Source: an uncultured Chloroflexia bacterium
Lineage (GTDB): Bacteria; Chloroflexota; Anaerolineae; JAAEKA01
Assembly: GCA_963709505.1 (NCBI GenBank)
Contig: CAVPXC010000012.1
Span: forward strand, 93,356-157,355
Direction of reading: 5' to 3'
DNA: 64,000 nt
The notes beneath the pieces are model-generated. The model saw only the letters and a list, made by a program, of their open reading frames with translations, did no database searches and was not told the DNA's origin. The translations under genes and the position numbers were made by a program. Positions 19,195-64,000 of this stretch are shown piece by piece. The stretch's first letter is position 1. Every line of letters begins with the position of its first letter.

Positions 19195-19196
19195 GA

Positions 19197-28299: not shown

Positions 28300-28400
28300 G
28301 AAAGAGCCGTTGTAGTGCAGGTGGACAGGTGGCAGGTAGCAGGTGGCATACAGTTGCTACTTGCCACTTGCCACTTGCAACCTGCAACCTGCAACTTGCC
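28300..28400. repeat. heptamer-repeat hairpin element (GGCAGGT/GGCAAGT arrays)
   Basis: caggtggacaggtggcaggtagcaggtggcatacagttgctacttgccacttgccacttgcaacctgcaacctgcaacttgcc. Confidence 0.8.
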
Positions 28401-28447
28401 CACCCTTACGAAGGCCGATAGTTGACGCCAACCTCGTCATCTGTAAA

Positions 28448-36900: not shown

Positions 36901-37814
36901 ACGCGGGCAGTGGACCAACCACGGCTGCCAACCCTTTGCCCGGTCAGAGCGTGACGTTCGCCTTGGGCGGCCAACAGCGCGTTGCGATCACCGGTCCGGA
37001 TGGCCGTGCCACGACAACTTTACCGCTCATGGCGCCTCCCGGGCTTAACGAGATACGGGTCTCTTTCGCGGGCACTGAACAATACCTGCCCTCGTCCTCG
37101 ACGGTTCCCTTCACCCTCTTCAAGCAGCCCACGCGGCTGGCGCTCGTACCGCAGCCAGCGACAGGTCAATACAGCGACGCTGTCGAGTTGAGTGCGAAGC
37201 TCACCGATAGCCTAAACAGAGCGCTGCGGGACAAGACGATCTTCATGATCGTCGGCAGCGGCAGTCCATCGACAACGATCTCGACGATAACAAACTACCT
37301 TGGCGAGACTGTGTCGGAGCCTATCTACTTACCGAGCGGCACGTACTCGGTAACCGCCTACTTCATGGGCGTCATTCCAGTAGGCGGCGGTGCGACCGTT
37401 ATGTTGGAAGATCCACTGTATGAGCAATCCACCCAAGGCGGGTCGCTCCTTATGCTTCCGGAATATGCCAAATTGGACTACACGGGCCAGATCGCCGGTT
37501 ACCAGAATCTGCCTTTCCGCGCTGCTGCCCAGGTCGCCCAAGTGGACGACGGCATGCCCGGTGACCTGACCCTGGCCAAGGTGCAATACGTTCTCACTGA
37601 CGCCAACAATCAGGTCGTTGCTTCAATGCTTGGGGACGTCGCACCAGATGGAAGCTCCTTGGCTAAAATCCCGGGGCAGGCGGCAGGCATCTACTACATG
37701 ACTGTCCAGGTCGTTGGCGGCTACTTCACCTCATCCGTCAGCGAGCCCACGACAATCACGGTGTACGCCCCTTTGCCGGTCCGAGTATGGCTTCCAAGCA
37801 TAGCTTCCCAGTGA
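30928..37814 (+). CDS. giant secreted multidomain protein (~2290 aa if contiguous): signal peptide, CSLREA-like motifs, right-handed beta-helix (PbH1) repeats, cadherin-like domains, PPC-like domain interrupted by DSWSP repeats, clan-CD (gingipain C25-like) peptidase-like domain and C-terminal Ig-like domains. The reading frame is broken inside the tandem repeat at 34230-34340.
   Basis: Two 1112-aa ORFs (30928..34266 and 34476..37814) lie in different frames. The first ends inside the PPC-like domain (...RWYKIHIEPGTKVKVTLEDLPANYDLTLYKD...APDSWSPDSW). The second starts by completing it (ANTWSNTGDFYVRVRGRNGAFSLAAPFTVRITVE). Other features: N-terminal signal/TM LGTALMLAAMIVVSLAYA, CSLREA-like motifs GSGCTLRAAIQEA and GAGSLREAINYA, GGGIYN beta-helix repeats, DLINVNEPPIAVDD, and a His/Cys pair in LAGHFSAS...FSAGCHSGYN. 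AAGGAG ribosome-binding site. Confidence 0.6.
34174..34400 (+). repeat. coding 15-nt tandem repeat (GACTCCTGGAGCCCN encoding DSWSP) of about 13 units, with several 14-nt units and two ctcgg variants
   Basis: Spacings between successive ACTCCT starts are 15,15,15,14,14,15,15,15,14,14,15. The net length change of about -4 switches from frame 1 to frame 3. Confidence 0.85.
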
Positions 37815-38313: not shown

Positions 38314-41300
38314 ATGGACTCACCGATCGTATATCTTCCAATGGATCGTCGCCAGGCGTTGGCACGCGGTGAAACGCTGCCTGATCGCGTTCAAGGTGCG
38401 GCTCTCTTCGCCGACATCTCCGGCTTCACCCCGCTCACAGAAACGCTTGCCCGAGAGCTTGGCCCCCAGCGCGGCAGCGAGGAAATAACGCTACACCTCA
38501 ACCTGGTGTACGATGCGCTGATTGCCGAGCTACACCGTTTCGGCGGCAGCGTCATCGGCTTTAGCGGCGACGCGATTACCTGTTGGTTCGACGAGGATCG
38601 TGGCCAGCGAGCTGTGGCCTGTGGTTTGGCCATGGAGCAAGCGATGGCGCGTTTCGCAACGATTATCGTGCCTTCGGGCAAGACCATGTCTTTGACGATG
38701 AAAGTGGCGGTCACCGTTGGGCCGGCGCGTCGTTTCCACGTCGGCGATCCTGGCTACTGGATCGTCGAAGTGCTTGCCGGCGCCACCCTCGACCGATTGG
38801 CCGCCACCGAAAACCATGCTCGAGGCGGTGAGGTTGTGGTCGACTCGGCGACCGCGGCTGCTCTGGGCGATGCGCTTGAGATCGTAGCCTGGCGTGAAGA
38901 CCCGCAAAACAACCAACGCTTTGCGGTGGTCGGCGGACTGACCCAGCAGGTGACGCCCACGCCATGGCCTCTCTTGCCCGACGACGCTCTTGACGAAGAG
39001 GTCACGCGCCCATGGCTATTGCCTGCCGTCTACGAACGGCTCCGGCAGGGCCTTGGCGGATTCCTGGCCGAGTTACGCCCGGCAGTCGCGCTGTTTATGG
39101 CTTTCACCGGCATTGACTACGACTTAGACGACGATGCTGGAAGCAAGCTGGACACATTCATCCATGCGGTGCAGACGATCCTTGCACCCTACGACGGCAC
39201 GCTCATTCAGTTGACCATGGGCGACAAGGGTAGCTACCTGTACGCGGCCTTCGGTGCGCCTTTTGCGCACGAAGATGATGCCAAGCGGGCGGGATCAGCG
39301 GCGCTTGAGCTGCGCGATCTGGCCACGAAGCTGGACTTCCTCCGTGGGATTAGGATTGGCATCACCCAGGGCAGTATGCGGACCGGAGCCTACGGCGGGA
39401 CAATGCACCGCACCTATGGCGTGCTCGGGGACGCCACAAACCTGGCAGCCCGGTTAATGCAAGCTGCGACGCCCGATCAGATTGTGGTGACTCAAAGGGT
39501 CCAAGAGATGCTTGCGGAGGATTTTACGTGGGAGCGCCTCCCGGAGCTGCACGTCAAAGGCAGGAGTGAGCCTATCACCGCGTACAACCTTCTGGCGGTC
39601 AAAATACGTCCGGCGCTCACGTTGCTTCAGTCGCAACATGAGCTGCCCCTGGTGGGACGCCAGGCTGAGATGACGCTGGTCGGCGAAAAGATGGAGCGAG
39701 TGGCACAGGGCGCCGGCCAAATCATCGGAATCACGGCCGAGGCTGGCATGGGCAAATCCCGGCTGGTAGCTGAGCTCATGCGCCTCGTCGACGAACGACA
39801 ATGGCCTCACTACGGCGGCGAGTGCAGCTCGTATGGCACCAACACCAGCTATCATGTCTGGTACAGTATCTGGTGGCACTTCTTCGGCCTCAATCCGGCG
39901 TCGACGTTGGAGGAGCAGATCGGTACGCTCGAGACCCAGCTCAGATGGATCGATCCTGGGCTACTGCCTCGTCTGCCGCTGCTGGGCACTGCATTGAACC
40001 TCCCCATCCCAGACAACGAGCTCACCGCTACGTTCGATGCCAAGCTGCGCAAGTCGTCACTCGAGGCGCTCCTGCTCGATTGCTTGCGGGCGCGCAGCCA
40101 GCAGACGCCTTTTGTGCTGTTGCTCGAGGATTGTCATTGGCTTGACCCCTTGTCACACGATCTGCTAGAAGCCGTTGCCCTGGCCGTTGCCAGCCTGCCG
40201 GTGCTTATGCTCCTGGCCTATCGACCACCGCAGCTTCAGTATCTGAAGTCGCCTCGTGTAAGCTCGCTGGCCCACTTCGCCATGGTCGAGTTGGACGATT
40301 TCACCCCTGATGAGGCTCGTCGCCTGATCGACCTCAAGATTCAGCATGAGTACGGCAGTCAGGCCGAGATATCTGGCGATCTGGCAGGACGCATTACCCA
40401 ACGCGCGGGTGGAAACCCCTTCTTCATTGAAGAGCTGCTGAATTACTTGCGAACCCAAGGAATCGATCCCACCGACCGCAACGCGCTGGCGCAGTTGGAA
40501 CTGCCGAACAGCCTGCAAAGCCTGGTGTTGAGCCGTGTAGATCAACTGGCCGAGAACCAGAAGATCACCCTCAAGGTGGCCAGCGTGGTGGGTCGCTTGT
40601 TCGAAGCCGATACGCTGGGTGGCTACTATCCACAACTGGGCGGGGCTGAGCGCGTGCGTGAGGACCTGGGCGCACTGACAAATGCGGACCTGACGCTGCT
40701 TGAGGTGCCTGAGCCTGAGCTGATCTATGGCTTCCGCCACGGTATCACGCAAGAGGTAGCGTACGAAAGCTTGCCTTTTGCGACCCGAGCCATGCTTCAC
40801 GAGAGCCTGGCCAACTACACCGAGCGAACCGCCGGCCCGCGGCTCGATCAAGTTATCGACCAACTCGCCTTCCACTACGGTCGCAGCGACAATGTGGACA
40901 AGAAGCGCGAGTACTTCCTTAGAGCAGGCGAGCGCGCCCAGGCCGCCTACAACAATGCCACAGCCATCGACTATTACCGGCAAGCCCTTCCGCTGGTGGA
41001 GGGCAGAGAGTGCATCGCCGTGCGGCTGAAACTGGCCCAGGTCATGGACTTGGTGGGCAAGTGGCAAGAGGCCAATGAGTTGTATCAACAGGCCCTGGAC
41101 CTGGCAGTCCAGTTGGACGACCTCCAGGCGATGGCTCGATGTGAAACGGCCATGGGCGAACATCTGCGCAAGCGCGGGCTGTACAAGGAGGCTGCATCCA
41201 GGCTGAACGAGGCACGCGCCAAGTTTGAGCAGATCGACGACTTGGCTGGGGTGGGCCAGACCCTCCACACCGAAGGCACCCTGACAGCGCAACAGGGCGA

Positions 41301-41985
41301 CTTCGAACGAGCTCGATCCCTCTACGAGAGTAGCCTAGAGATCCGCCGACAGCTAAATGATTGGGCAGCCATCGCCAGCCTCCTCAGCAACCTTGGCAAC
41401 GTCGCGCGCCTGCAAGGCAAGTATGAGGAGGCGCGAGCTCTGCAAGAGGAGGGGCTGGCCATTCGCCAGGAGAGCGGTGACAAGTGGGCCATTGCGGTTT
41501 CACTCAACAACCTTGGCAACGTGGCGCTGAACATCGGCGACCATACGGCCGCCCGTGAGTACTTGCAGAAGGCCGTGGCTCTGGAACGCGAGGTTGGCGA
41601 CCGAGCCAAGCAGGTCAATGCTCTCAATGACCTGGGAAACGTAGTTCGCAGCCAGGGCGACTACAGCGCGGCGCAGTCCCTCTATACTGAGGCGTTGCAG
41701 ATCAACCGGGAACTGGACAACAAATGGGCCTCGGCCTATCTTTTCGAGGACGTCGGCTGTCTGGCGGCCTTGAAAGGCCAGGCAGAACGCGCGCTACAGC
41801 TGGTCGCAGCCGCCTCGGCGCTGCGGCAGTCTATCGGCGCACCCCTGTCACCCGCGGAGCAATCAAAACTCGACGAGCTACTCATCCCAGCAAAGGAACA
41901 GCTTGGCGAGGAAGGCCTCGCAGAAGCGAATGAGAAGGGCCGCTCACTGAGTCTCCAACAGGCCATCGATCTGGCTGTCGGTTGA
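38314..41985 (+). CDS. multidomain regulator: two class-III adenylate/guanylate cyclase (CHD) domains, AAA+ ATPase and C-terminal TPR repeats
   Basis: CHD 1 (AALFADISGFTPLTE...GFSGDAITCWF). CHD 2 (VALFMAFTGIDYD...LTMGDKGSYLYAAFGAP...YGVLGDATNLAARL). Walker A AEAGMGKSRLVAEL. TPR-like repeats (LSNLGNVARLQGKYEEARALQEEGLAIRQESGDKWAIAVSLNNLGNVAL). Confidence 0.85.
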   Translation: MDSPIVYLPMDRRQALARGETLPDRVQGAALFADISGFTPLTETLARELGPQRGSEEITLHLNLVYDALIAELHRFGGSVIGFSGDAITCWFDEDRGQRAVACGLAMEQAMARFATIIVPSGKTMSLTMKVAVTVGPARRFHVGDPGYWIVEVLAGATLDRLAATENHARGGEVVVDSATAAALGDALEIVAWREDPQNNQRFAVVGGLTQQVTPTPWPLLPDDALDEEVTRPWLLPAVYERLRQGLGGFLAELRPAVALFMAFTGIDYDLDDDAGSKLDTFIHAVQTILAPYDGTLIQLTMGDKGSYLYAAFGAPFAHEDDAKRAGSAALELRDLATKLDFLRGIRIGITQGSMRTGAYGGTMHRTYGVLGDATNLAARLMQAATPDQIVVTQRVQEMLAEDFTWERLPELHVKGRSEPITAYNLLAVKIRPALTLLQSQHELPLVGRQAEMTLVGEKMERVAQGAGQIIGITAEAGMGKSRLVAELMRLVDERQWPHYGGECSSYGTNTSYHVWYSIWWHFFGLNPASTLEEQIGTLETQLRWIDPGLLPRLPLLGTALNLPIPDNELTATFDAKLRKSSLEALLLDCLRARSQQTPFVLLLEDCHWLDPLSHDLLEAVALAVASLPVLMLLAYRPPQLQYLKSPRVSSLAHFAMVELDDFTPDEARRLIDLKIQHEYGSQAEISGDLAGRITQRAGGNPFFIEELLNYLRTQGIDPTDRNALAQLELPNSLQSLVLSRVDQLAENQKITLKVASVVGRLFEADTLGGYYPQLGGAERVREDLGALTNADLTLLEVPEPELIYGFRHGITQEVAYESLPFATRAMLHESLANYTERTAGPRLDQVIDQLAFHYGRSDNVDKKREYFLRAGERAQAAYNNATAIDYYRQALPLVEGRECIAVRLKLAQVMDLVGKWQEANELYQQALDLAVQLDDLQAMARCETAMGEHLRKRGLYKEAASRLNEARAKFEQIDDLAGVGQTLHTEGTLTAQQGDFERARSLYESSLEIRRQLNDWAAIASLLSNLGNVARLQGKYEEARALQEEGLAIRQESGDKWAIAVSLNNLGNVALNIGDHTAAREYLQKAVALEREVGDRAKQVNALNDLGNVVRSQGDYSAAQSLYTEALQINRELDNKWASAYLFEDVGCLAALKGQAERALQLVAAASALRQSIGAPLSPAEQSKLDELLIPAKEQLGEEGLAEANEKGRSLSLQQAIDLAVG

Positions 41986-51218: not shown

Positions 51219-51879
51219 TCAGCGGTAGACTATTTCCCGCTGCCATTGGCCTTGCGGTTCACAGTGCAGCTGCCAATAGACGTCAGCTATCCGGTCGGGA
51301 TCAAACAAAGTACCTGGCTGAACCATGCCGGCAATGGTCACGGTCGCCACGTGAATGCCTGCCGGCTCCAGCTCAGCGGCCAGACTGAAGACCAAGTTGC
51401 GCAGACCGGCCTTGCCCACGGCTAAGGCAGCCGCTTGCGGCCATGGATTGAGCGCCAACCCACCTCCGGTGAACAGCATCGTTCCGGCCCCTGCCGTCCG
51501 CATCTGGGGAAACACCTGCTGGGAGGCAACCAACGCCCCGACCACATTGGAGCGAAAGGCCTCGACCAACTGCTCGCCATCCAACGTCGAGGGAGCGCCC
51601 GGAGCGTTTGCGGCGACGTTGTAGACCAGGACCGCTGTCGGGCCCAGATGGTTGGTGATACGCTCAAACGCTCCGCGCAAGGATTGGGCTTCGCCGGCAT
51701 CGGCGGCAAAGCCAAAGGAACTCGACGCCGCCAGCGGAGAGCTCTGCCTGATAATCTGCCAGAGCTTCCTCGCGCCGGGCAATCAATGCGACCCGAAAGC
51801 CTTCTCGACCAAAACGCCGGGCTACGGCCAGGCTGACGCCCGGTCCTGCACCGACGATAGTGCATAGTTTGGTGTTCAT
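51219..51879 (-). CDS. SDR-family oxidoreductase, with an apparent frameshift near 51750
   Basis: The N-terminus MNTKLCTIVGAGPGVSLAVARRFGREGFRVALIARREEALADYQAEL (ORF 51664..51879) continues in another frame (ORF 51219..51782) with ...VYNVAANAP... Confidence 0.6.
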
Positions 51880-51887
51880 TTCGTCCT

Positions 51888-52574
51888 TTAGAGGCCCTCA
51901 GCCTTGAAGCCAATGTCCTTGTGGGTACCGTCGCAGAACGGCTTGTTGTGCGAGCCGCCGCAGCGGCATAGGAAGGCACGGTTGCCCTCAAACGCAATCA
52001 GGCCGTCGGCGCTGGACAACCCCAAGTCGCCTTCGATCTTGATCGAGCCGTCGGCCGTCGGAATAACAATCAACCTACCGCCAGTTTGGATCGTGTCGAT
52101 CAGGCGAACCCTGTTTTCTCCAAGCGCTCCGGAGTTTGCAAACCCGATACGAACGTGACTGTTGTCGCAGAACGGCTTGTTGTGCGAATCGCCGCAGCGG
52201 CAAAGCGCCATGCGCGTATCCTGCACCACGGCGCCATCGACCAGGCGCAGCTCAATGTCGCCGCGCAGGTACAAGGGGCCGCGGTCGCGTAAGCAAATCG
52301 TATTTTGCTCAGGCGCGCCCTCGGCTGCGCCGCCGTCTTTACGCTCAAAGTGCAACGCGCCGGTGGGACAACGCATTATCACCTCGGCAACTGCGTCCGC
52401 CGCAGCGTTGGCCGGCTGGATCCACGGCCGTTTGCCGGTATCGAACACGCCCGGCAACCCGCGCACGCATTCGGCGGCATGCGTACATCGTTCGGCGTCG
52501 TAGGTAACGACGATGTCATCACTCCAGTATGCTTTTACCTTAGCGGTCATGGGGTTTTGTCCTTCTCTGGCCAT
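51888..52574 (-). CDS. CDGSH-type iron-sulfur domain protein (two CDGSH motifs) with an N-terminal Cys-rich domain
   Basis: Motifs CRCGDSHNKPFCDNSH and CRCGGSHNKPFCDGTH. N-terminal ERCTHAAECVRG...MRCPTGAL. Confidence 0.8.
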   Translation of the reverse strand: MAREGQNPMTAKVKAYWSDDIVVTYDAERCTHAAECVRGLPGVFDTGKRPWIQPANAAADAVAEVIMRCPTGALHFERKDGGAAEGAPEQNTICLRDRGPLYLRGDIELRLVDGAVVQDTRMALCRCGDSHNKPFCDNSHVRIGFANSGALGENRVRLIDTIQTGGRLIVIPTADGSIKIEGDLGLSSADGLIAFEGNRAFLCRCGGSHNKPFCDGTHKDIGFKAEGL

Positions 52575-54976: not shown

Positions 54977-55144
54977 TATACCGGTTATTAGGGGAACCCT
55001 GCGTTATGCGCCTTACACTTAGCACACAAATACAAAAAGCTCGGCATGGTCGAACCGATTGACTTTTTGAAAAGTCTATGGCATTATATAACCATGGTCA
55101 TGGCTATGGCCACCAATCAACTCGCGCTGTCATGGAGGCGCCTC

Positions 55145-55375
55145 ATGCTTACTATCTCCAAGAGCAAGTTAAAAACCCACATGCTGCAGGTTTTTCGTCA
55201 GATCGAGCAGACCGGTGAGGAGGTCATTGTCACCGACAACAATCGTCCTGTGCTTCGAATCCAGCCCTTTGCCCGGAAACCTGGCGTCGACGAGGTGTTC
55301 TCCCCGTATCGCGGCAAGATGGTCTTGCACGAAGATCCGGATACACCCACTGCTGACGAATGGAGCGAAGTCTAA
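55145..55375 (+). CDS. type II antitoxin, Phd/YefM family
   Basis: Sequence MLTISKSKLKTHMLQVFRQIEQTGEEVIVTDNNRPVLRIQPF. Confidence 0.75.
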   Translation: MLTISKSKLKTHMLQVFRQIEQTGEEVIVTDNNRPVLRIQPFARKPGVDEVFSPYRGKMVLHEDPDTPTADEWSEV

Positions 55376-55756
55376 ATGGTGGTGCTTGATACGTCTGCGC
55401 TGCTCTCTTGGACATTTTCTCCAGAGCAGCTTTCTGCAAACGCAGCCAAGGCAATCGAAGAAGCTCAACAAGTCGCCATCAGTTCGATGTCGATCTGGGA
55501 GATTGGTCTCAAAGTGAAGCGCGGCAAACTGGAGCTTCCCCTGTCACCCGACGCATTCGTGCTGAAACTCAAAGAGACAGATAGAATGCGAATCGAACCG
55601 GTTACTGAAGCGACCTGGCTGAAAAACCTGGAGCTGCCCTGGGACCACAAGGATCCGGCCGACCGCACGATTGTAGCCACAGCTGCCCTGTTCAATTGTC
55701 CCCTAATTACTTCTGATCTGGAGATTCGATCATTCTATGCGAATGCTGTGTGGTAG
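55376..55756 (+). CDS. type II toxin, PIN-domain (VapC-like) ribonuclease
   Basis: Sequence MVVLDTSALLSW...SIWEIGLK...TIVATAALFNCPLITSD. Its ATG directly abuts the antitoxin stop (TAAATG). Confidence 0.75.
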   Translation: MVVLDTSALLSWTFSPEQLSANAAKAIEEAQQVAISSMSIWEIGLKVKRGKLELPLSPDAFVLKLKETDRMRIEPVTEATWLKNLELPWDHKDPADRTIVATAALFNCPLITSDLEIRSFYANAVW

Positions 55757-55763
55757 TGTGTGT

Positions 55764-58700
55764 TCATGAAACGCAGACAGAGCCAAGCAACAGGCCCCCG
55801 AAGTGACGTGCTCTTCGGGGGCCTGTTGCCGCTGCAGAGTATTTACACGTGCCGTCGCCGCGTTGCTCAGCGCGCCGGCCAGTAACGCCAGCAGCGCCAG
55901 CAGTGTTCCGGCCAACGGCAGGGCAGGGACGACGGCAGGAGTTCGCCTGGATACCGCTCAACGTCACAGCGGTCGGCCCGGTGTAGACCACGCTGACCGG
56001 CCCGTGCCGCGTCGCCACGCCGCTGTTGTCGACATCCTCGACCCAGTAGAAGTAAGACGTGCCGGGAACCAGGTCGGTACGGTCGTCCCAGGTGTAGATG
56101 AAGCCGCCGGGGTTGCCCTGCGACTGCGAGGGAATCAGCGTCTCGTTCAACTGCCGATCCGGCCCCCCATCCGACGTGCCGCGGTAGAGGTTGAAGCCGC
56201 GGTTGTTCAGCTCGGTGTTGGTTTCCCAAGTCAGCAGAACGGCATCGCCTTGCTGCACTGCACTGAAGTCGGCCAGGGTTACTGCCAACGGGCTAAAAGT
56301 AAGCTTGTAGTCCTCGGCTTCGCCCGCTGTGGCCGCGCCGAAGGCCGTCGGCGTTGCCTGCGGCCCTGCCGCGCCGCCCTCCGCACCCGCCAGCGGATAG
56401 CTGATGCCCGTGCAGCCGTTGCTGCCGTCGCGCGCAGTCAGGCGGAAGCGGAAACGGTAGGTGTTGGAACCCGCCCCGAGCAGTCCGGTCGGCGCACTGA
56501 ACGTGATGTTGTTGACGCCGTTCACCAGGGGCGCATTCTGGATCACCCGCTCGGAGATACCGCCGTAGCTATCGCCGAAATCGCCGTCCGAGCCCCCAGG
56601 CGCCGCCGGGCCGACGCCCGTGCCGTCCGTGAAGTCCATCCAGGCGTCCAAACAACTGGCGCCCGAAGCCGTCACATTGAACGCGCCCGTGCCGCCTCCC
56701 CAGTTGCCGTTGCCGGCCAACGCCACCCCGTCGTCCGAGACGTTGTCGCCATCCTCGACAAAGCTGGCGTCAGCCGTCCAGCCGGAGCCCAGTCGCAGCG
56801 CGCCGCTGCCCGTGTGCCAGGCGACACCGTAGGAAGCCGCTAGATCGCTGTAATCGGCGGAGGAGGCAATCGAGGCGCCGCAGATTGTCAGACTCCAAGA
56901 TGAGAGGGTACCGGTGTCGCTTATCGCATCGTCCACCACTCGCAGTGTCCACGTGCCGTTTGCCGCCTTGCCATCCAAGCCGCTCAACAGGCCTTCGGGT
57001 TTGAAGCTACCGGTGAAGGGTGCCGTACCCGCCGTGATAGAAGTCGCCGCTTCGTCGTCGAATACGGTGTTCACATAGTTGTCACCGCTGCTGCCGTTGT
57101 CCGTCGACAACTCTACTGCAGTCGTGTCAGGATGCAGAATGTGGATGTCCAGATCCTCATCCCAGGTATGGGTAAGTTGGCCGATGGTGATGTTCACATC
57201 TGTGATGGTTCCACCACCGCTGGGCACATTGACGACGGAGGTCGTCGTGCCAAGCGTGCCGCTAGGGGGCACCGCCTTGGGCACGTCGGTGCTGACGTAG
57301 GTAGTACAGCTCACTGCTGCTGTGCGGAACGCAAAGAGGGTCGAAACGCGGTTCCCGCAGGCATTGACCGCATACACGCGCCAGTAATGCACTGTGTCGG
57401 CGGCCAACGCCGAAGATGTCCAGCTTGTGGAGGTCAATCCGGTCGCCAACGCCACAATGTTCGCAAACGTCGGATCGGTCGCCACCTGGATGTCGTAGCT
57501 GGTCGCGCCTGCCACCGCGCCCCAGGTGAAGGTCGGGTTCGTGGCGCCGCCGGTACTGCCGTTAGCCGGCGCAGTAAGGGCCGGCGCAGCAGCCAGCGGA
57601 GTCGAGACATTCAGCGTGGCACTGGCCTGGTGGGTCAGGCTGCCCGCCGTGCCGGTGACGGTGATGTTGGTCGCGCCTGCGCCTGCGCCGCTGACGGTCA
57701 GCGTGCTGCTGCCCGGCGGGGCGACGGGGTTGGGGCTGAAGGATGCGGTGGGACCAGTCGGGCTAAGGGCCGCACTCAGGCTAACGGCGCTGCTGAACCC
57801 ACCGACGCTCCCGACCGTCACGTTCACCGTGGCGTTGCTGCCCTGGCAGATGGTCTGGTTGGCCGGCGCGGCAGCGATGGTGAAATCAGACACGTTGCAC
57901 GATGGGAACTTGAAGGTGCCGATGCGCGTATACCAGTTATATGCGCCGCTGGTCTGCGCGTACTCCTGGGTGTACCAAAAGGTGCAGTCGTCGGAGGGGT
58001 CGACTTGCATGGCGCTGTAATCGCCCCAGCGGTTATTGGAGTCGTTTTGGTAGCCGCCACCCGTGACGAGGGTGGCCTCGTTCTGGGGCAGGGTGCCTAG
58101 CGTGTCGGCCGCCAAACGGCCGACGTACCGGATGCTGGGGTAGAGACTGACGTTGTCGGTGATGCTGTAGCCCAACGCCATGTTGCCGGCGCCGTCCATG
58201 GCAATGCTGCCCATCCAGCGGCTGGTCGAGGTGGTGTCGGCCGGCCCGTAGACCCCCTGCTGGTTGATCGCCCAGGCGCTGCCGGTGTTGCGCAGCTCGA
58301 ACCAGTGGATGCCAGCCCGGCCGGCCGGGCTGTTGGTATCCACGGTGTGGTTACTGACCAGCGTCTGGTAGCTGCCGAAGTTGCGGTACTGGAGACGGTG
58401 CATCAGCCGGTCGGCGAGATCATCCAGCATCACGCTCGTCCCCGGCTGGTCGATGCAGGCGGGTGAAGCGGCGCACAGGGTGGGGTCGACGTTCGTCGTG
58501 TTGAGCGTATAGGTCGGCACGAAAGGCGAACCGGCAGTCCCGAAATAGGAGTTGGCCGGCGCCGTCCAGTCGACGTGGAAATTCCAGATGCGCAGCGCGT
58601 CGCTGGGTCCAATATTGGCCGAGTCGTCCCACTCAGCGAAGAGACTAGGCGCGCCGCTTGGCGGCTGGGTTGCCCCCTCCCAGTCAGCCGGCAGCATCCC

Positions 58701-59684
58701 GCCATAGGCGGAGTTGTAGGAGTAACCGTTGAAGTACTGAACTGACGCCGCGGCGCCGGTCAACATTGCGGAGCGTTGGAAAGCGGCCACGCCCGCGCCA
58801 CGCCACGCCGTCCCGGCATCGTTGAACTGATTGACCGAAAGATAGTAGCCATCGGGCCACAGCCCAATTTTAGGATAGTCCGGGAAATAAGTATTGGGCC
58901 AGGTGTAGGAGTAACGGTACCAGCTCCCCGTCGGGTCGCCAGTCTGCGACACCGCGATACAGATCAGGTCCGAGCTCCCGTCGCCGACGGCGCCAAGGGC
59001 GAACTGCATCATGACCCAGCGGTCCGCCAGGTGATCGTAGAGCGTGACCGGGTCGCCGTCGTTATAGTCCTGGCACTTGCCGCCGAAGCCGCTCCACAGG
59101 GTGTTGCCGAGGGCCGGTCCGTAGAGCGACGTGCCGGTCTTGGTCCAGATCTGGAAGCGAACGTTGACCCACTGAATCTGATGGTCGGGTCCGACATCGC
59201 CTTGGGTGTCTGGTGGACGTACGGTATAGCCCACGTTGTTGATTCCAGCCCAGTTCTGGATCGGCAACGGCATGGCTGCCGGCCCATGCCAGTCCTGGTA
59301 CGAGGAATCGATCCCGCTGAAGCTGCCCTCCTTTTCATGGCCCGGCAGCAGCCCGAGTTCCCTGAACCGAATGAGGGTCGGGTCCGCCGGCGGAGCAGCA
59401 ATGGGCTCAATGTCGCGCAAGGGCGGCGAGACATCCATGTGGTCTGGCTGGATCACGACCACCCCGTCGGCCGCCGGCTTCACATCCGCCTCCTGGTTGA
59501 CCCTGCTCAGCCCTGCCGATGCGCCCGCCACGCTGAGTTGCCCGGCCTTCTGTCCGATGGCCGTTCGGCCGGCCGCACCTGACTGGGATACGCCGGGATG
59601 CATAGCGCCAGGCGGCGCAAAGGCCGCCAGGCCGATCCCTAACACCACCAAAGCGCCTACCAGACGATTCCAATGTGGTTTCAT
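55764..59684 (-). CDS. large secreted protein (about 1300 aa): signal peptide, ~700-aa N-terminal region of unknown fold, proprotein-convertase P-domain-like module, FN3 domain and the conserved C-terminal anchor module. The extreme C-terminus is apparently frameshifted near 55940.
   Basis: Signal peptide MKPHWNRLVGALVVLGIGLAAFA with a GGAGA ribosome-binding site. P-domain-like DLDIHILHPDTTAVELSTDNGSSGDNY...GTWTLRVVDDAISDTGTLSSWSLTICG. FN3 PTFTWGAVAGATSYDIQVATDPTF...VHYWRVYAVN. Module EDYKLTFSPLAVTLADFSAVQQGDAVLLTWETNTELNNRGFNLYRG...YFYWVEDVD...RHGPVSV..PTAVTLSGIQAN. The -1 frame continues TPAVVPALPLAGTLLALLALLAGAL, a hydrophobic anchor. Confidence 0.7.
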   Translation of the reverse strand: MKPHWNRLVGALVVLGIGLAAFAPPGAMHPGVSQSGAAGRTAIGQKAGQLSVAGASAGLSRVNQEADVKPAADGVVVIQPDHMDVSPPLRDIEPIAAPPADPTLIRFRELGLLPGHEKEGSFSGIDSSYQDWHGPAAMPLPIQNWAGINNVGYTVRPPDTQGDVGPDHQIQWVNVRFQIWTKTGTSLYGPALGNTLWSGFGGKCQDYNDGDPVTLYDHLADRWVMMQFALGAVGDGSSDLICIAVSQTGDPTGSWYRYSYTWPNTYFPDYPKIGLWPDGYYLSVNQFNDAGTAWRGAGVAAFQRSAMLTGAAASVQYFNGYSYNSAYGGMLPADWEGATQPPSGAPSLFAEWDDSANIGPSDALRIWNFHVDWTAPANSYFGTAGSPFVPTYTLNTTNVDPTLCAASPACIDQPGTSVMLDDLADRLMHRLQYRNFGSYQTLVSNHTVDTNSPAGRAGIHWFELRNTGSAWAINQQGVYGPADTTSTSRWMGSIAMDGAGNMALGYSITDNVSLYPSIRYVGRLAADTLGTLPQNEATLVTGGGYQNDSNNRWGDYSAMQVDPSDDCTFWYTQEYAQTSGAYNWYTRIGTFKFPSCNVSDFTIAAAPANQTICQGSNATVNVTVGSVGGFSSAVSLSAALSPTGPTASFSPNPVAPPGSSTLTVSGAGAGATNITVTGTAGSLTHQASATLNVSTPLAAAPALTAPANGSTGGATNPTFTWGAVAGATSYDIQVATDPTFANIVALATGLTSTSWTSSALAADTVHYWRVYAVNACGNRVSTLFAFRTAAVSCTTYVSTDVPKAVPPSGTLGTTTSVVNVPSGGGTITDVNITIGQLTHTWDEDLDIHILHPDTTAVELSTDNGSSGDNYVNTVFDDEAATSITAGTAPFTGSFKPEGLLSGLDGKAANGTWTLRVVDDAISDTGTLSSWSLTICGASIASSADYSDLAASYGVAWHTGSGALRLGSGWTADASFVEDGDNVSDDGVALAGNGNWGGGTGAFNVTASGASCLDAWMDFTDGTGVGPAAPGGSDGDFGDSYGGISERVIQNAPLVNGVNNITFSAPTGLLGAGSNTYRFRFRLTARDGSNGCTGISYPLAGAEGGAAGPQATPTAFGAATAGEAEDYKLTFSPLAVTLADFSAVQQGDAVLLTWETNTELNNRGFNLYRGTSDGGPDRQLNETLIPSQSQGNPGGFIYTWDDRTDLVPGTSYFYWVEDVDNSGVATRHGPVSVVYTGPTAVTLSGIQANSCRRPCPAVGRNTAGAAGVTGRRAEQRGDGTCKYSAAATGPRRARHFGGLLLGSVCVS
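55781..55817. terminator. 14-bp perfect stem (ACAGGCCCCCGAAG / CTTCGGGGGCCTGT) with a 9-nt loop between the convergent PIN toxin and secreted-protein genes. Candidate bidirectional terminator.
   Basis: Read directly from the sequence. Weak T-tract. Confidence 0.45.
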
Positions 59685-59832
59685 AGGTTGAATTCTCCAG
59701 TTTCTCTGAGCATATGAAGCGAACCGGCCATATGTCCACAGCGCCCATGGAAGCCTGACAAATGCCGCGCCGACCAAGGATGCCAGCAGCGCCCTGCCTG
59801 CTAACCAGGGGATTGACCGTGAAGAACAGAAG

Positions 59833-59857
59833 GCGGGGAGCGACGTCGCTCCCTGCC
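59833..59857. terminator. 18-bp perfect palindrome GGGAGCGACGTCGCTCCC downstream of the 59911..61078 gene
   Basis: Read directly from the sequence. Confidence 0.4.
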
Positions 59858-59910
59858 TCCCACGTGCCAGAAACCGGGCCTTTCCCTACAACCCGGTACG
59901 GAAAGATCGG

Positions 59911-61078
59911 CTATGCGCGGCGACGCAGCCGGCTCAGTCCCAGGGCTATGCCAGCGCTCACAGCGACCCACAGCCACGGCAACCTCACGGTCGCCGCCGG
60001 ACCAGCCTGTATCTCGCTCACCGTCACCGCCGTCGGCACGGTGTAGTCGACGCTCACCGGACCGTGCCTCGTCGCCGCGCCGTAGATGTTGACATCCTCG
60101 ACCCAGTAGAAGTACGACGCGCCAGGAACCAGTTCGGTGCGGTCTTCCCAGGTGTAGATGAAGCCGCCGGCGTTGCCCTGCGACTGCGACGGAATCAACG
60201 TCTCGTTCAACTGCCGGTCCCACCCCGCCGCCGACGTGCCGCGGTAGAGGTTGAAGCCGCGGTTGTTCAACTCGCTGTTGGTTTCCCAAGTTAGCAGGAC
60301 GGCGTCGCTCTGCTGCGTCGCGCTGAAGTCGGCCAGGGCAACGGCTAAGGTGCTGTTGCAGGGCAGAGCGCCAATGGTGCCGCCTCGGATAATGTCTGCC
60401 CCACAGATGGACTGTGTCCCAGGAGGATTGGGTATCTGGGAGACGTCATCCCAGTTTGTTCCTGTGTCATTGAGCGCTGTGAAGTCGCTGCAATCAAGGG
60501 TGTTCGCCCAAGAAATCGCTGCACCTTCGCCGTTGACCTCGCCCGTTTCGGGAACACTCGCGAAGTCGATCTGGGTAGCACCGCACGCCAGATACAGGTC
60601 GGTCCCACTGGAATTTGAGAAGAAGGTAGTGCCATTACTGACAAAGGACATGGTGAATTCACAACCTACGGCGCTGTTTAGCTCTGTGCTTGGAACACCA
60701 GCGGTGTTTCCCCCGCACAGTTGAATGCACGTCTTAGCTGAAATGCTAGAACTAGAGGGGAAGGAGTATGTCCACAAATCGGTGTTTCCTCCAATAGCTG
60801 TATTGCGAAAAGAGCAGCCATTGAGGTCAACGCTCTGCGGCAAGACGGTTGCAAATCTCGACAAATTCGCCGTCGCCGGGGTCGGCGCCGCACGTGTTGG
60901 GATTGTAAAGCAACTGCGAAAAGAAGAGATCGCCGGGTTGGGGCGTCACCGTAGGGGCCTTCGGAGACGCGCCAATTGCCGAGCCAGCCACGAAAAGCAA
61001 CAGCACCGACAGGAGAGGCAACGCCAATGAAGCCGGCTTGACACGGGTCGCGCTTTGTCGAGAGGCGGGCTGGTTCAT
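59911..61078 (-). CDS. secreted lamin-tail-domain (LTD) protein with the conserved C-terminal anchor module, with an apparent frameshift near 60840
   Basis: Signal peptide MNQPASRQSATRVKPASLALPLLSVLLLFVAGSAIGA. LTD start DLFFSQLLYNPNTCGADPGDGEFVEICN in one frame, continuing as SRFATVLPQSVDLNGCSF in another. C-terminus LADFSATQQSDAVLLTWETNSELNNRGFNLYRG...PTAVTVSEIQAGPAATVRLPWLWVAVSAGIALGLSRLRRRA*. Confidence 0.7.
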
Positions 61079-61370
61079 GGTATTCTTCCTTCCAGAGTCT
61101 CCAATAAGCTCGACCGTAAGCAGTGGCTTCCAATTTTCCGTTGCTGGTCGCCAGGTCGTTTTTAGTGCGACCGTTAGCTTGCCAGACACCTGTCTCATAT
61201 CTTGAACGGGGATATCTTCGTTCAGTGGCCTCAGCACGATACATCCACATTCGACATATCACGAAGTTCGGCTTCACACAAACCCACGCATTTTACGGGC
61301 AGCTTGCAGTTACCCCACGCCGCCAACTGGCGCCATTGGGGGTAACTGCGCTAGGCAAGAATGAACAAAG

Positions 61371-61400
61371 CGCCTGATCCTTAGTCGAGGGTCAGGCGCC
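61371..61400 (-). terminator. 11-bp stem hairpin (GCGCCTGATCC / GGGTCAGGCGC) followed on the minus strand by UUUGUUCAUUCUU, about 70 nt downstream of the 61472 stop
   Basis: Read directly from the sequence. Confidence 0.45.
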
Positions 61401-61471
61401 TTCGTTGTGCCACTCTTGGGTGACTTGCGGACACTGGACCAGTCTCCGATGGCTGGACCAGTCGCAGCAAC

Positions 61472-63003
61472 TTACCCGTTCTGGCGTCCCGCACGCCGGA
61501 AGAAGCGGCTAAGGGCCAGGGACAGCCCTGCGACCACTGCCGCCCACAGCCATGGCAACGGCTGTGCTGGCGCGCCGCCGGCCCGCAAGCCACTCAGTGT
61601 CACCGCGGTCGGCACAGTGTAGTTCACACTGACCGGCCCATACATCGTCGCCGCGCCGTTTATGTTGACATCCTCGACCCAGTAGTAGTAGGTCGAATCC
61701 GGCGTCAAATCGGCACGGTCTTCCCAAGTGTAGATGAAGCCGCCGGGGCTGCCTTGCGACTGCGACGGGATCAGCGCCTCGTTCAACTGCCGGTCCGGCG
61801 CGGCCGGTGAGACGCCGCGGTAGAGATTGAAGCCGCGGGTGTTCAGCTCACTATTGGTCTCCCAGGTCAACAGGACAGCGTCGCCCTGCTGGACAGCGCC
61901 AAATTCGGCTAGGGTCACGGCCAGAGGGCTGGCCGCGGAGAGGACGAATTGGGTGTTGGTGGCCGACAAACTCAGATTGCTTAACGTCACCGAACAGTTG
62001 AGCTGCCCCGACACGCACGCGCTGCGGGTGATCCCCACGAGGATCTTCGTCCAGGCACCAGTCCCGATCTTCGCCCAGACCCACAAACTGCTTGGGGTCT
62101 GGCCATTGAGCTCACCAAACGTATAGTAGAAGACGACTGATGACGCCGTGTCAGTAGTGGTTGGGTCAATGGCGTAGCAGCGCTTCACGGAAATCTGCGA
62201 CCCGGCCGCGGTCCAGTCCGAGCACGTCTGGTTACCGCTGATGTTCACGATGGTGCTGCCAAGGTTTGCACTAGCGTCCGTTGTGATGTTCACCCCGTAG
62301 TATTTGTTGGTGGAGATATTCAGGAAATTGTACAAGGTGTTGTTGGACGACAGCGTCTGGGTCTGTCGCAGAGCGCCGTTGTTCGTCACCGTGCCACCCA
62401 CGGTAAGAGCGAACGTATTGAGGTCGAGCGTGGCTGCGCTGCTCACGGACAGGTTCCCGGCCACGTCCGTCGCACGACTGAGATCCGTAGTACCGCCACT
62501 AACAATCAGGTTGTTGAAAGTGTCAAAAGCAGTATTGTTCGGTAAGGTGTTATTGGCGGTGGAGCTGCTACAGTGCCACTACCTTGGGTCCAAGTGCCAA
62601 TATTGGTGGCGGTAAAACTCCCAGCTTTCAAGGTTCCACCGCTTGTCATGTTAATGCTACCGGTCCTGGAACCATTTCCAAACGTTATCGCTCCAGAGAC
62701 CGTCACCTGAGAACCGGAGTTGAACGCGAGGATACCGCTGCCGGAGGCAGGCGTCGTGCCGCCTAGTTGGATGCTTGCGCAAACTGCATTTGAAACGTTA
62801 AGGGTTACGGTGGCCCCATTTTGGATCGTTACCGTGTCGCCAGCAACCGGCACATTGCCGCATGACCAGGTACCAGCGGTCCCCCAGTTACCGTTTGTCG
62901 TTGCCACACAACTGGCTGCCGCCGCGTGTTGTGGCGCGGCCACGAGGGCAAAACCCGCGACCAAAAGCGCCCCGAACACCATCAAGAACCATTTGGGTTT
63001 CAT
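61472..63003 (-). CDS. secreted beta-helix-like protein with the conserved C-terminal anchor module, with an apparent frameshift near 62560
   Basis: Signal peptide MKPKWFLMVFGALLVAGFALVAAP with a GGAAGGGA ribosome-binding site. The N-terminal ORF 62506..63096 ends at a stop and the downstream frame continues open (SSTANNTLPNNTAFDTFNNLIVSGGTTDLSRATDVAGNLSV...). C-terminus LAVTLAEFGAVQQGDAVLLTWETNSELNTRGFNLYRG...PTAVTLSGLRAGGAPAQPLPWLWAAVVAGLSLALSRFFRRAGRQNG*. Confidence 0.7.
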
Positions 63004-63092
63004 CGTTTCCCTTCCTTCCGCATGCTGAGTTGAGTGATTTCTCCTCAGTCGCATGGCTGGAACTGGCCCCACCATGCCCTTTACGCCTGAAG

Positions 63093-64000
63093 TCATAAGA
63101 TCCCTTGTTCACGTTTCATGCATTCTTCCTTTGCCCCAGGCTGGAACACGCCGACGATGGGGCCATCGGGGAGCGTTTGCTGCGGGCCGACCGCCAGCGT
63201 GGCAACCAGCAAGCACAACACCGGGCCTTTCGCAACAAGCCCGGTGTCGCCCACTTGCCACATCCTCTCACGCTGGTTCCGTGATATCGGCGCTGCACTG
63301 GTCGCACGCAGACTGGGCCAGTCTGGAGTATTACCGCGCCGTCGCAAGCGCCCGAGACCCACGGCTACTCCAGCGCCCACGGCCAACGCCAGCCAGGGCA
63401 GCGCACTGGCGGCTGCCGGGGTGGCGCTAATGCCGCTCAACGTCACCGCAGTCGGCGCCCCGAACGTCGCGCTCACCGGCCCGTGACGAGTTACCACGCC
63501 GTTGAGATCCACGTCCTCGATCCAGTAGTAGTAGGTCGAACCCGGCGTCAAGTCGGCACGGTCTTCCTAGGTGTAGGTGAAACCACCGGGGTTGCCCTGC
63601 GACTGCGACGGAATCAGCGTCTCGTTCAACTGCCGATCCGGCCCGGCTGGCGCCGTCCCGCGCCACAGGTTGAAGCCTCGGTTGTTCAGCTCGCTGTTAG
63701 TCTCCCAAGTCACCAAGACGTGGTCAGTGCGCGCCTCAGCTTGGAACATGGCGAGTGTCACAGCAAGCGGTCTGAAGTCCCAACGATAGTCCTCGACCTC
63801 ACCACCCTTCGACTGACCAACACCATTCGCGGCTCGCCCGTCGAACGCCAGTTGCGGTGTAAGAGGAACTTCGTCCGTGGGAAAGAGCCGAAAACGGCCA
63901 TAAAGCGTTCTATTGCCATCCGGTGGGAAGGTGCCAGCCGGAACATTGAAGGTAAAAACCTGGTTCAGCCCTGGGCCTACAGGCTGGTTGATGATCGCAT
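63093..64000 (-). pseudogene. fourth member of the secreted-protein family (5' end outside the window). The conserved module carries an in-frame TAG replacing a conserved Trp codon, and the C-terminus extends ~70 aa past the RRR tail.
   Basis: The frame reads ...EVEDYRWDFRPLAVTLAMFQAEARTDHVLVTWETNSELNNRGFNLWRG...GGFTYT*EDRADLTPGSTYYYWIEDVD...RHGPVSATFGAPTAVTLSGISATPAAASALPWLALAVGAGVAVGLGRLRRRG.... The paralogs have W at the * position (TGG to TAG, plus-strand cta at 63566..63568). Confidence 0.55.

Follow-up and report, generated by a model that had tools for sequence, protein, structure and literature searches.

A conserved C-terminal FN3-like module with a hydrophobic, arginine-ended tail as a candidate stalk and membrane anchor of exported proteins in Chloroflexota

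Four adjoining genes on the minus strand of the window (the whole 64-kb stretch of DNA analysed) each carry a copy of a C-terminal module of ~112 aa (family HMM, 173-207 bits), and on balance we favour the reading that they encode Sec-exported proteins equipped with a lineage-specific cassette of an FN3 stalk and a type I membrane anchor. The cassette would consist, in order, of an FN3 domain, a linker of small residues, a single hydrophobic helix and a terminal Arg cluster. The N-terminal signal peptide would be cleaved first, after which the C-terminal hydrophobic segment would halt translocation and the Arg cluster would be retained on the cytoplasmic side in keeping with the positive-inside rule, leaving a membrane protein of type I topology (N-out, C-in) with a single pass. 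In bacteria with one membrane, a short rigid FN3 stalk would then hold the enzyme or adhesin at that membrane's outer face, and a dedicated sortase-like enzyme would not be needed. A cleaved signal peptide and a stop-transfer anchor are enough to explain everything seen. The sequence-only reading had placed a shared C-terminal cassette on unrelated exported proteins, which is borne out well beyond the window, given that ~85-90% of ~200 members from at least 24 assemblies keep the hydrophobic stretch and the Arg cluster. The features of the array are as follows.

Gene 1, 55764..59684, minus strand, as read: ATG at 59684 and signal peptide MKPHWNRLVGALVVLGIGLAAFA; domain order ~600-aa N-terminal domain, Ig/FN3-like repeats, P-domain, GEVED, module
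Gene 1 predicted FN3 module core, 55959..56294, minus strand: family HMM positions 2-113, 207 bits
Gene 1 tail, 55843..55958, minus strand: split across three frames
Gene 2, 59911..61078, minus strand: signal peptide MNQPASRQSATRVKPASLALPLLSVLLLFVAGSAIG, lamin-tail-like domain, Cys-rich region, module, tail
Gene 2 predicted FN3 module core, 60019..60354, minus strand: 207 bits
Gene 2 tail and stop, 59911..60018, minus strand: linker SEIQAGPAATVR, hydrophobic segment LPWLWVAVSAGIALGLS, RLRRRA, stop
Gene 3, 61472..63003, minus strand: signal peptide MKPKWFLMVFGALLVAGFALVAAPQHAAA, G8/beta-helix-like passenger, module, tail
Gene 3 predicted FN3 module core, 61595..61930, minus strand: 205 bits
Gene 3 tail and stop, 61472..61594, minus strand: SGLRAGGAPAQP, LPWLWAAVVAGLSLALS, RFFRRAGRQNG, stop
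Gene 4 (partial, N-terminus outside the window edge), 63093..64000, minus strand: GEVED-like end, module, tail
Gene 4 end of GEVED-like domain, GGEVEDYRW, 63806-63780, minus strand
Gene 4 predicted FN3 module core, 63438..63773, minus strand: 173 bits, in-frame TAG inside
Gene 4 tail, 63333..63437, minus strand: SGISATPAAASA, LPWLALAVGAGVAVGLG, RLRRRG, with no stop codon after it

The consensus drawn from these copies by the sequence-only reading is accurate for the module core, apart from its '(E)DY', which is the end of the GEVED domain and occurs in genes 1 and 4 only. The similarity it reported among the copies is likewise real, genes 2 and 3 being 72% identical across module and tail and the four copies having a mean DNA column identity of 74%. 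Recent duplication or gene conversion was rejected as its source because synonymous substitution is close to saturated and divergence between paralogs of one genome is as large as that between copies from different genomes. The passengers are unrelated, as had been claimed: gene 1 carries a P-domain (4.6e-10) and GEVED behind an N-terminal domain without any Pfam family, the frame-repaired protein of gene 2 falls just under the LTD cutoff (1.3e-7, 32.4 bits; cutoff 34.3), and gene 3 has a weak G8 match, its N-terminal part being homologous to passengers in four other loci (L001, L013, L014 and L015).

Activated sludge and soils abound in polymer-feeding filaments of the Anaerolineae and Caldilineales, Ca. 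Amarolinea among them, and to our knowledge hardly any work has addressed how these filaments keep hydrolases and adhesins at their surface. The cassette is widespread in Chloroflexota: each genome has tens of carriers, clustering at 50% identity gives at least 961 clusters, and it marks a large share of the Anaerolineae/Caldilineales surface proteome for which a curated model is lacking. An HMM of it would improve annotation at once, since most members are now 'hypothetical protein', and would be a clean input for phylogenetic profiling of a possible processing enzyme. Its passengers include subtilases, alpha-amylases, LTD, P-domain, GEVED, SdrD_B, PKD, LamG and cohesin. The initial protein search returned only matches of up to 260 aa, probably through length bias, and the full-length carriers were therefore taken from genome loci and an exhaustive profile search. 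Among 76 complete carriers, 66 start with a signal-peptide-like sequence; signal-peptide and topology calls are heuristic throughout, and by this heuristic carriers combine such a start with a single C-terminal transmembrane (TM) segment and positive charge C-terminal to it, the arrangement of a type I protein. Chloroflexi genomes are devoid of LPS-synthesis genes and BamA, which fits a single membrane (PMC5826079), and the idea that Anaerolineae carry outer-membrane genes is contradicted by the same study.

The tail is alike in design in most copies and variable in sequence. In 89 of 100 non-redundant full-length modules (24 assemblies), it spans 28-48 aa (median 37) and consists of a hydrophobic core followed by a mean of 3.6 basic and 0.2 acidic residues; the same hydrophobic core and basic end recur in 107 of 126 independent representatives. 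The hydrophobic segment, ~17-20 residues long, lies ahead of the first Arg and is made up largely of A, L, G and V, and the Arg cluster has R at its first position in 86 of 87 copies and at the next three in 55, 57 and 45, with the stop following 0-8 residues past it. Kyte-Doolittle hydropathy is 1.7-2.3 for the window copies, and some stretches in the family are weak, at 1.2-1.5 units per residue, which counts somewhat against their serving as anchors. The hydrophobic segments are Gly/Ala-rich, with Pro in 71 and Trp in 60 of the 89 at their outer edge, and a linker of 8-25 residues, made up of small residues, separates them from 'PTAVTL'. No position of the 89 tails is invariant and no short conserved signature motif stands at or near the TM segment in any of them: LPxTG, PGF and Cys are each absent (0/89) and PEP occurs once, which agrees with the sequence-only reading in its denial of LPXTG and PGF. 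The tail evolves nearly neutrally (dN/dS ~0.7, versus ~0.33 for the core; amino-acid identity 0.27 versus 0.58), and some copies have alternative tails, amphipathic-helix-like or YLP-box-like, without a TM segment.

Tripartite sorting domains are defined as C-terminal regions composed of a signature motif, a TM helix and a basic cluster, usually of Arg (10.1101/2023.06.07.544157). The cassette has the C-terminal location, the hydrophobic segment of TM length and the basic cluster, and lacks the signature motif. Like the LPXTG/sortase, PEP-CTERM/exosortase, PGF-CTERM/archaeosortase, GlyGly-CTERM/rhombosortase and MYXO-CTERM/myxosortase systems, it closes the protein with a hydrophobic helix and then an Arg cluster, and it resembles them in being lineage-restricted, with many paralogous carriers per genome and unrelated exoenzyme or adhesin passengers. 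Unlike them, it has a conserved folded domain of ~110 aa ahead of a tail that drifts almost neutrally, and it comes with neither a curated match at cutoff nor an enzyme in the neighbourhoods. Type I 'C-terminal hydrophobic tail' surface proteins are an established class in monoderm bacteria (PMC3415414), and cassette carriers would share their design: a signal peptide and one C-terminal TM segment, N-out/C-in, with basic residues inside and no processing needed. Whereas those proteins are idiosyncratic, the cassette is a conserved domain plus tail reused on hundreds of unrelated proteins across the phylum.

Apart from the motif, however, the design is that of cleaved sorting signals, in the extreme C-terminal position, the Gly/Ala-rich hydrophobic stretch with RRRR and the many paralogous carriers with exoprotein cargo, and this tells against a plain anchor. 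The tail could accordingly be an undescribed sorting signal that a dedicated enzyme (rhomboid/rhombosortase-like, CPBP/myxosortase-like, exosortase/archaeosortase-like or sortase) cuts within the membrane or close to it, with the protein then re-anchored or released; we consider this unlikely. The hydrophobic segments, with their edge Pro and Trp, resemble rhomboid-type substrates, and the FN3 module or 'PTAVTL' would have to serve as the recognition element instead of a short motif. In 'PTAV', P107 is invariant and T, A and V are each kept in at least 90% of copies, and LPXTG signals also have a spacer ahead of the TM segment (10.1101/2023.06.07.544157). In addition, each orphan C-terminal signal studied to date was eventually matched to an enzyme, a precedent that also weighs against the anchor (10.1101/2023.06.07.544157). 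Against cleavage stand the lack of an invariant motif abutting the TM segment, the variable spacer past PTAVTL, the near-neutral evolution of the tail and its replacement by an amphipathic-helix-like tail in some copies. Moreover, 'PTAVTLSG[LV]xA' is a repetition of the strand with which the module begins (strand A), and in tandem arrays of 2-10 module copies PTAVTL forms strand A of the copy that follows. A variant in which the folded ~110-aa domain is itself recognised, and an intramembrane protease of, for example, the rhomboid or CPBP type cleaves a Gly/Ala/Pro-rich type I helix, is an improbable form of this proposal: it would make a new C-terminal sorting class in single-membrane Chloroflexota, releasing or re-anchoring dozens of exoenzymes per cell alongside the phylum's YLP-box system.

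Searches for models and enzymes bear on the same question. When 66 module-plus-tail sequences were scanned against Pfam and NCBIfam, including all curated CTERM sorting domains, none reached cutoff, leaving the module uncatalogued. The best CTERM scores below cutoff were LPXTG_anchor (E 0.0047), MYXO-CTERM (0.0041) and GVDTG (0.0074), with PID_CTERM at best 11.8 bits of the 26 required; such matches are scattered over more than 12 models, and those to LPXTG_anchor, PVV_CTERM and PID_CTERM, on inspection, cover the TM and basic part only. Neither of the two outcomes that the sequence-only reading had named against itself, a match to a known sorting domain or loss of the hydrophobic stretch in orthologs, was found. 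No sortase-like gene was detected in the 64-kb window, as that reading had stated; nor did the window, or the surroundings of module genes out to 10 kb in 28 assemblies, yield a recurring candidate of the sortase, exosortase, rhomboid or CPBP kind. Even the commonest neighbour families occur in no more than 6 of the 28 and are housekeeping or mobile (SufB-like, response regulators, kinase, dehydrogenase, phosphoribosyltransferase, PIN and a transposase-like protein). Five neighbourhood matches to the sortase 'TLxTC' regex were rejected: they fall in the N-terminus of a passenger, in an off-frame ORF rich in Arg and Pro, and in ORFs of other, unrelated kinds. Sorting enzymes are usually encoded away from their substrates, and for this reason the neighbourhood result is weak evidence, which limits its value in support of an anchor. 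Given a tail without signature motif and evolving almost neutrally, the alternative tails and the lack of a recurring neighbour enzyme, a different processing enzyme is not implied, contrary to what had been concluded from the window, and nothing in the analysis points to a novel system of the sortase type. A tripartite-looking tail needs a signature motif before an enzyme is deduced from it.

Two catalogued devices also invite comparison with the cassette. The first, NCBIfam choice-of-anchor R (NF041539), is likewise a conserved beta-sandwich that directly precedes C-terminal anchoring signals in a variety of surface proteins; 15 of 66 members resemble it weakly along the core (best E 4.8e-4), and one inspected alignment scores 18.8 bits (E 0.0013), under the cutoff of 30, so that the module is not a member. 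What defines choice-of-anchor domains is that each lineage combines them with a known sorting signal of a different kind, whereas the module is mostly paired with one generic tail of TM segment and Arg cluster. The second, the YLP-box (NF050076 and NF053834, 'ultrashort_CTERM'), is an already curated putative sorting motif of ~10 residues without TM segment or FN3 domain, found on homologs of the gene 1 passenger domain and on ORFs adjoining module genes; the four window genes are all without it. Related organisms seem to use it as an alternative C-terminal device, and its presence on homologous passengers lends something to the idea that the cassette, too, is a sorting signal.

The modelled module core, an FN3 domain of ~105-110 aa, has the fibronectin type III fold, and its seven-stranded beta-sandwich can be superposed on FN3 domains of solved structure; the AlphaFold2 model of gene 2 has pLDDT ~95 across the core and a helix over residues 128-147. 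It remains under the gathering threshold of Pfam fn3 (PF00041; matches in 2 of 66 members, best E 3.4e-4), and Pur_ac_phosph_N, which matches 21 of 66 (best 1e-4), is also below threshold, its listed scores being 15-18 bits against a cutoff of 30. Compared with membrane-proximal FN3 domains such as those of Ihog, neogenin/DCC, cytokine receptors and bacterial glycosidase/pectate-lyase modules, identity is 10-24%, and the strand C-to-E segment of the module is unusually long and conserved. The core includes the conserved segment 'DRQLNxxLIPSQxxG...GFxYxWxD', and residues 41-66 contain invariant or near-invariant positions in a segment that is irregular yet confidently modelled. Purifying selection acts on the core of every paralog (dN/dS 0.18 for window genes 2 and 3), and on that account the FN3 core of the proposed anchor probably also touches a shared envelope partner. 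Conservation of this strength exceeds what a passive stalk would need, which counts against the anchor reading. The same selection, the residues at 41-66, the persistence of the module alongside different tails and the tandem arrays can be taken further, to a module that is itself the functional element, an envelope-binding or oligomerisation domain that attaches cargo to a component of the wall, sheath or S-layer, or to a secretion/assembly factor, with the TM tail as a secondary or transient tether. This is a doubtful reading: FN3 domains are common passive spacers, no binding-domain family matches and no binding partner was found, and most copies by far retain the tail, which is therefore not dispensable.

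Two claims of the sequence-only reading about the genes of the array held only in part. Genes 1-3 have signal-peptide-like N-termini (heuristic), as expected of secreted proteins, but linking signal peptide and body requires a frame change at 60848-60843 in gene 2 and within 62585-62509 in gene 3; both were placed by overlap of open frames, and tblastn of carriers against the window gave no passenger matches at E<1e-6. Likewise, all four genes had been said to end in module, TM segment, Arg cluster and stop, and only genes 2 and 3 do so, because the gene 1 tail is out of frame and gene 4 has no stop. In gene 1, the module frame continues '...SGIQANSCRRPCPAVGRN...' to the stop at 55764 without a TM segment, while the hydrophobic stretch 'LPLAGTLLALLALLAGAL' (55921-55868) and 'ATRRRHV' with its stop (55866-55843) lie in two other frames. 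Two 1-nt corrections, in which a base is removed close to 55941-55943 and another close to 55867, give SGIQATPAVVPALPLAGTLLALLALLAGALATRRRHV followed by a stop, so that the real end is probably 55843. The repaired tail is of the 'LPLAG' type and matches the 'PLAGALLALLAPLAGALAVRRRRA' variant of homologs; the 'LPWLW' tail ascribed to gene 1 was mistaken. In gene 4, an in-frame TAG at 63569-63567 replaces the TGG (Trp) of other copies (cctAGg versus ccTGGg), a G-to-A substitution and not an indel, and the open frame runs ~80 codons past RRRG, to 63093; an exact-pattern scan of metagenome contigs around this codon gave no match.

With at least one lesion in each of the four genes, the products of genes 1, 3 and 4 absent from the protein database and that of gene 2 present there only in truncated form (P0001, its last 246 aa), the array might consist of decaying pseudogenes and the cassette be non-functional in this organism, and the TAG, as a substitution, could be a real nonsense mutation; we regard such decay as very unlikely. 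The frame breaks and the TAG are probably assembly errors, because an unrelated single-copy gene of the window, for a GMC oxidoreductase, is broken likewise, needing three +1 frame changes within ~200 nt, and because an orthologous array elsewhere (L077) is intact, its gene 1 ortholog being 59% identical over residues 1-1231 and closing with a canonical tail. The frames are otherwise open over long stretches (1337 codons in gene 1). Most module copies are intact in assemblies of short-read appearance, and broken ones appear to be concentrated in those of long-read appearance (L001 and CP059258), the read type being judged from contig names and completeness. Gene structures in error-prone assemblies thus want a frame-by-frame check. 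The syntenic locus L001 is 67-87% identical to the window and too diverged to judge whether lesions are shared. Several further same-strand ORF pairs in the window overlap suspiciously, which also speaks against decay.

The C-termini of four minus-strand genes (genes 1-4; 55764..59684, 59911..61078, 61472..63003, and 63093..>64000) share an FN3 module of ~112 aa, found by three-frame translation of the minus strand and in the ORF list. Scored with an HMM from intact family members, the copies are:

56294-55959, minus strand, module copy of gene 1 (207 bits)
60354-60019, minus strand, module copy of gene 2 (207 bits)
61930-61595, minus strand, module copy of gene 3 (205 bits)
63773-63438, minus strand, module copy of gene 4 (173 bits)

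Across the four copies, DNA column identity averages 74%; module and tail of genes 2 and 3 share 72% identity, and the repeat greatly exceeds chance expectation. The core consensus written in the sequence-only reading, which proposed a four-gene tandem array bearing a candidate undescribed sorting signal, is accurate; the '(E)DY' counted there as part of the module closes the GEVED domain that genes 1 and 4 carry and lies outside the module.

On the module, every Pfam and NCBIfam model stays below its cutoff, and no solved structure is matched to it by sequence. A scan of species-representative genomes yielded 229 confirmed module stretches, all from Chloroflexota (Anaerolineae, Caldilineales, Ca. 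Amarolinea aalborgensis, and Ardenticatenaceae) with one exception, a 7-kb contig labelled 'MAG: Thauera sp.' (L043, JBEOKH010000303.1). Judged by sequence, this contig is probably mis-binned, because its module tail is identical to those of L041, a Caldilineales locus, and L042, from an unclassified bin. When 1.84 billion representatives were searched exhaustively with a profile, 961 matched at E<=1e-30 and 11,385 at E<=1e-10. Genomes carry many copies, frequently as tandem gene arrays, and at the syntenic locus L001 a similar array with different passengers lies beside the same methyltransferase and PIG-L genes. The module and its tail constitute a real, large, and uncurated cassette for which an HMM is worthwhile. 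Tandem modules (2-10 copies) also occur within single proteins, as in locus L055 (aa 3332-3545, frame +1) and database proteins P0082-P0085, P0118, P0131, and P0198.

Complete carriers range from 221 to 2859 aa (n=76), and 66 of the 76 have a signal peptide-like N-terminus. Their passengers include GEVED, LTD, subtilase, alpha-amylase, SdrD_B, P-domain, Big, PKD, LamG, cohesin, and nuclease/phosphatase, a typical set of extracellular cargo. The same type of tail follows 89 of 100 non-redundant full-length modules in the loci (24 assemblies) and is present in 107 of 126 independent representatives; the hydrophobic stretch is therefore no accident of the window. In order, the tail comprises an 8-25-residue linker of small residues, ~17-20 residues rich in A/L/G/V, R-R-R-(R), and a stop 0-8 residues on, giving a length of 28-48 residues (median 37, n=89). 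Among these 89 tails no position is invariant, LPxTG, PGF, and Cys are absent (0/89), and Pro and Trp are merely enriched at the outer edge of the helix. The one conserved element close to the tail, 'PTAVTLSG[LV]xA', shares its profile with strand one of the module, 'PLAVTLADFxA', and where modules are in tandem, the 'PTAVxL' that ends one copy doubles as the opening strand of its successor. Matches of individual tails to CTERM models are sub-threshold and scattered over more than 12 different models, and the inspected ones, to LPXTG_anchor, PVV_CTERM, and PID_CTERM, cover the TM and basic part only.

In a minority of copies, the TM tail is replaced by a ~34-aa amphipathic helix-like tail or a short YLP-like ending. 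Tails of the former kind (~22-43 aa in place of TM and Arg; 'NAWPSWLDTLVKTAREFLAVGFSR', 'AFRQVIRVLEFLRSLW') are carried by P0149, P0166, P0199, P0176, P0025, P0049, L065, and the first module of L003, and the two scanned (P0149- and P0025/P0049-type) match no curated model. P0080, a database protein of 122 aa from a 775-bp ENA contig, fuses a gene 1-like signal peptide and first ~70 residues to a gene 2-like module end and tail ('...GLPWLWVAVSAGMALGLGRVRRRA'), and is either an assembly chimera or a deletion/recombination variant between array members.

By the Nei-Gojobori method applied to 89 copies, the core has a dN/dS of ~0.33 with synonymous sites near saturation (pS ~0.58), values that are equal for within-genome paralogs and between-genome copies; genes 2 and 3 of the window give a dN of 0.13 and a dS of 0.74. 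For the tail, dN/dS is ~0.7 and amino-acid identity is 0.27, versus 0.58 for the core. Thus, the copies are old and the core is under functional constraint, and constraint on the tail is limited to composition and length.

In its published working definition, a sorting domain consists of a signature motif, a TM segment, and an Arg cluster, with a cognate enzyme (10.1101/2023.06.07.544157), whereas the cassette has the TM segment and the Arg cluster without a signature motif. An established alternative is the type I single-spanning or 'hydrophobic tail' surface protein, which loses its signal peptide by cleavage and stays in place through an N-out, C-in segment (PMC3415414). Neither LPS-synthesis genes nor BamA are present in Chloroflexi genomes, which fits a single membrane (PMC5826079). 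On balance, a plain anchor cassette is the likelier reading: the signal peptide would be cleaved, an N-out, C-in C-terminal segment would retain the carrier, and, the membrane being single, a type I anchor would display the passenger at the cell surface on an FN3 stalk. Such an anchor accounts for every observation without a new enzyme. Both components of the cassette, an FN3 domain and a generic stop-transfer anchor, are already known, and none of the results demands a new processing system. The strong constraint on the core suggests that the module may also contact a shared envelope partner. The observation in the sequence-only reading is confirmed in part and its interpretation supported in part: the TM and Arg tail is family-wide (89/100 and 107/126), but the different processing enzyme that the reading took to be implied is not supported.

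That the tail is a true cleaved sorting signal is unlikely, given that the tails lack a signature motif and that neither the window nor the module-gene neighborhoods of 28 assemblies offer an enzyme candidate. The window contains no sortase-like gene, as the sequence-only reading had stated, and no exosortase- or rhomboid-like gene either, its polytopic proteins being an MFS transporter and LtrA; no neighboring family recurs in more than six of the 28 assemblies, and the recurrent ones are housekeeping or mobile. Sortase-motif regex matches in these neighborhoods were false. Genes for sorting enzymes often lie at distant loci of the same genome, and empty neighborhoods are therefore weak negative evidence. 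Somewhat less probable still is a binding role centered on the module, for which the strongly constrained core (dN/dS ~0.33) speaks. A Phd/YefM-like antitoxin and PIN-domain toxin pair (55046-55756, plus strand) lies between the array and the methyltransferase/PIG-L genes; the pair is absent from the corresponding position in L001, in L013, module genes have a PIN homolog in their vicinity, and the PIN cluster occurs in 3 assemblies.

While the four module copies stand, the gene structures first assigned to them do not. In gene 1, the frame of the module encodes no hydrophobic tail: LPLAGTLLALLALLAGAL, the hydrophobic stretch, is read in one of the two remaining frames and the basic end, ATRRRHV*, in the other. 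Correcting one base near 55941-43 and one near 55867 recovers a tail of the 'LPLAG' type, so the 'LPWLW' tail ascribed to this gene was wrong in both frame and type. Gene 4 has an in-frame TAG at 63569-63567 where other copies have Trp, and its frame, said to stop directly after the Arg tail, stays open for ~80 codons beyond RRRG. In genes 2 and 3, the signal peptide joins the body only via one frame change each. Outside the array, a GMC oxidoreductase gene, single-copy and unrelated to the module genes, yields its canonical sequence only after three consecutive +1 shifts of frame in a stretch of ~200 nt (about 16900-17060). This suggests indel errors across the whole window, and other same-strand ORF pairs overlap suspiciously in different frames and may be further frame breaks:

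16336-17871 (within), minus strand, GMC oxidoreductase N-domain ORF (GMC_oxred_N, 2.6e-42)
16336-17871 (within), minus strand, GMC oxidoreductase C-domain ORF (GMC_oxred_C, 1.8e-37)
1751-4062, 18784-19673, 19839-20707, and 51425-52574, minus strand, overlapping ORF pairs
51891-52574, minus strand, CDGSH/Fer4_19 protein, its overlapping partner ORF without family

The broken copies of the module cluster in records that look like long-read assemblies from contig names and completeness, namely L001 ('contig_55844') and the complete chromosome CP059258; where contig names are of MEGAHIT or SPAdes style, most copies are intact. L077, an independent JGI contig, has an intact gene 1 ortholog (59% identity over residues 1-1231) ending in '...WPWLWLLAGAGAALAIGRRRRA*', followed by two more intact module genes. 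Because of the broken oxidoreductase, the enrichment of breaks in long-read-like records, and the intact L077 array, the frame lesions are probably not biology; although the gene 4 TAG is a substitution and so could be real, true pseudogenization of the array in the source organism is very improbable on the same evidence.

The N-terminal ~600 aa of gene 1 (57830-59684, minus strand) match no Pfam family and contain the motifs DHQIQWVN, DRWVMMQF, and DDCTFWYT. The domain is widespread across metagenomes from soil and sediment, with at least 598 matching stretches at 40-60% identity; in most of them Ig-like domains come next and the anchor is lacking. Homologs of the gene 1 passenger and ORFs adjoining module genes carry a very short hydrophobic C-terminal motif without TM ('...QVYLPLIIRASD', '...RVYLPLVLRTSD', '...IFMPLIMRNH'), which matches the curated NCBIfam 'YLP-box putative sorting motif' (NF050076, NF053834) and for which no paper was found in the literature. 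It is present at:

L079, L080, L084, L085, L087, and L142, C-termini
L038, 7909-9081
L048, 1-9360
P0040 and P0074

In the window, two 1112-aa ORFs (30928-37811, plus strand) code for large exoprotein-like proteins that lack the module, the first with cadherin, Big_9, and beta-helix domains and PDSWS repeats at its end, and the second ending in '...VRVWLPSIASQ', which is faintly YLP-like and below detection by the YLP-box models. These genes are flanked by a BTAD-AAA_16 regulator (28343-30550, plus strand) and, on the other side, by a 1223-aa adenylate/guanylate cyclase-AAA_16-TPR protein (38314-41982, plus strand).
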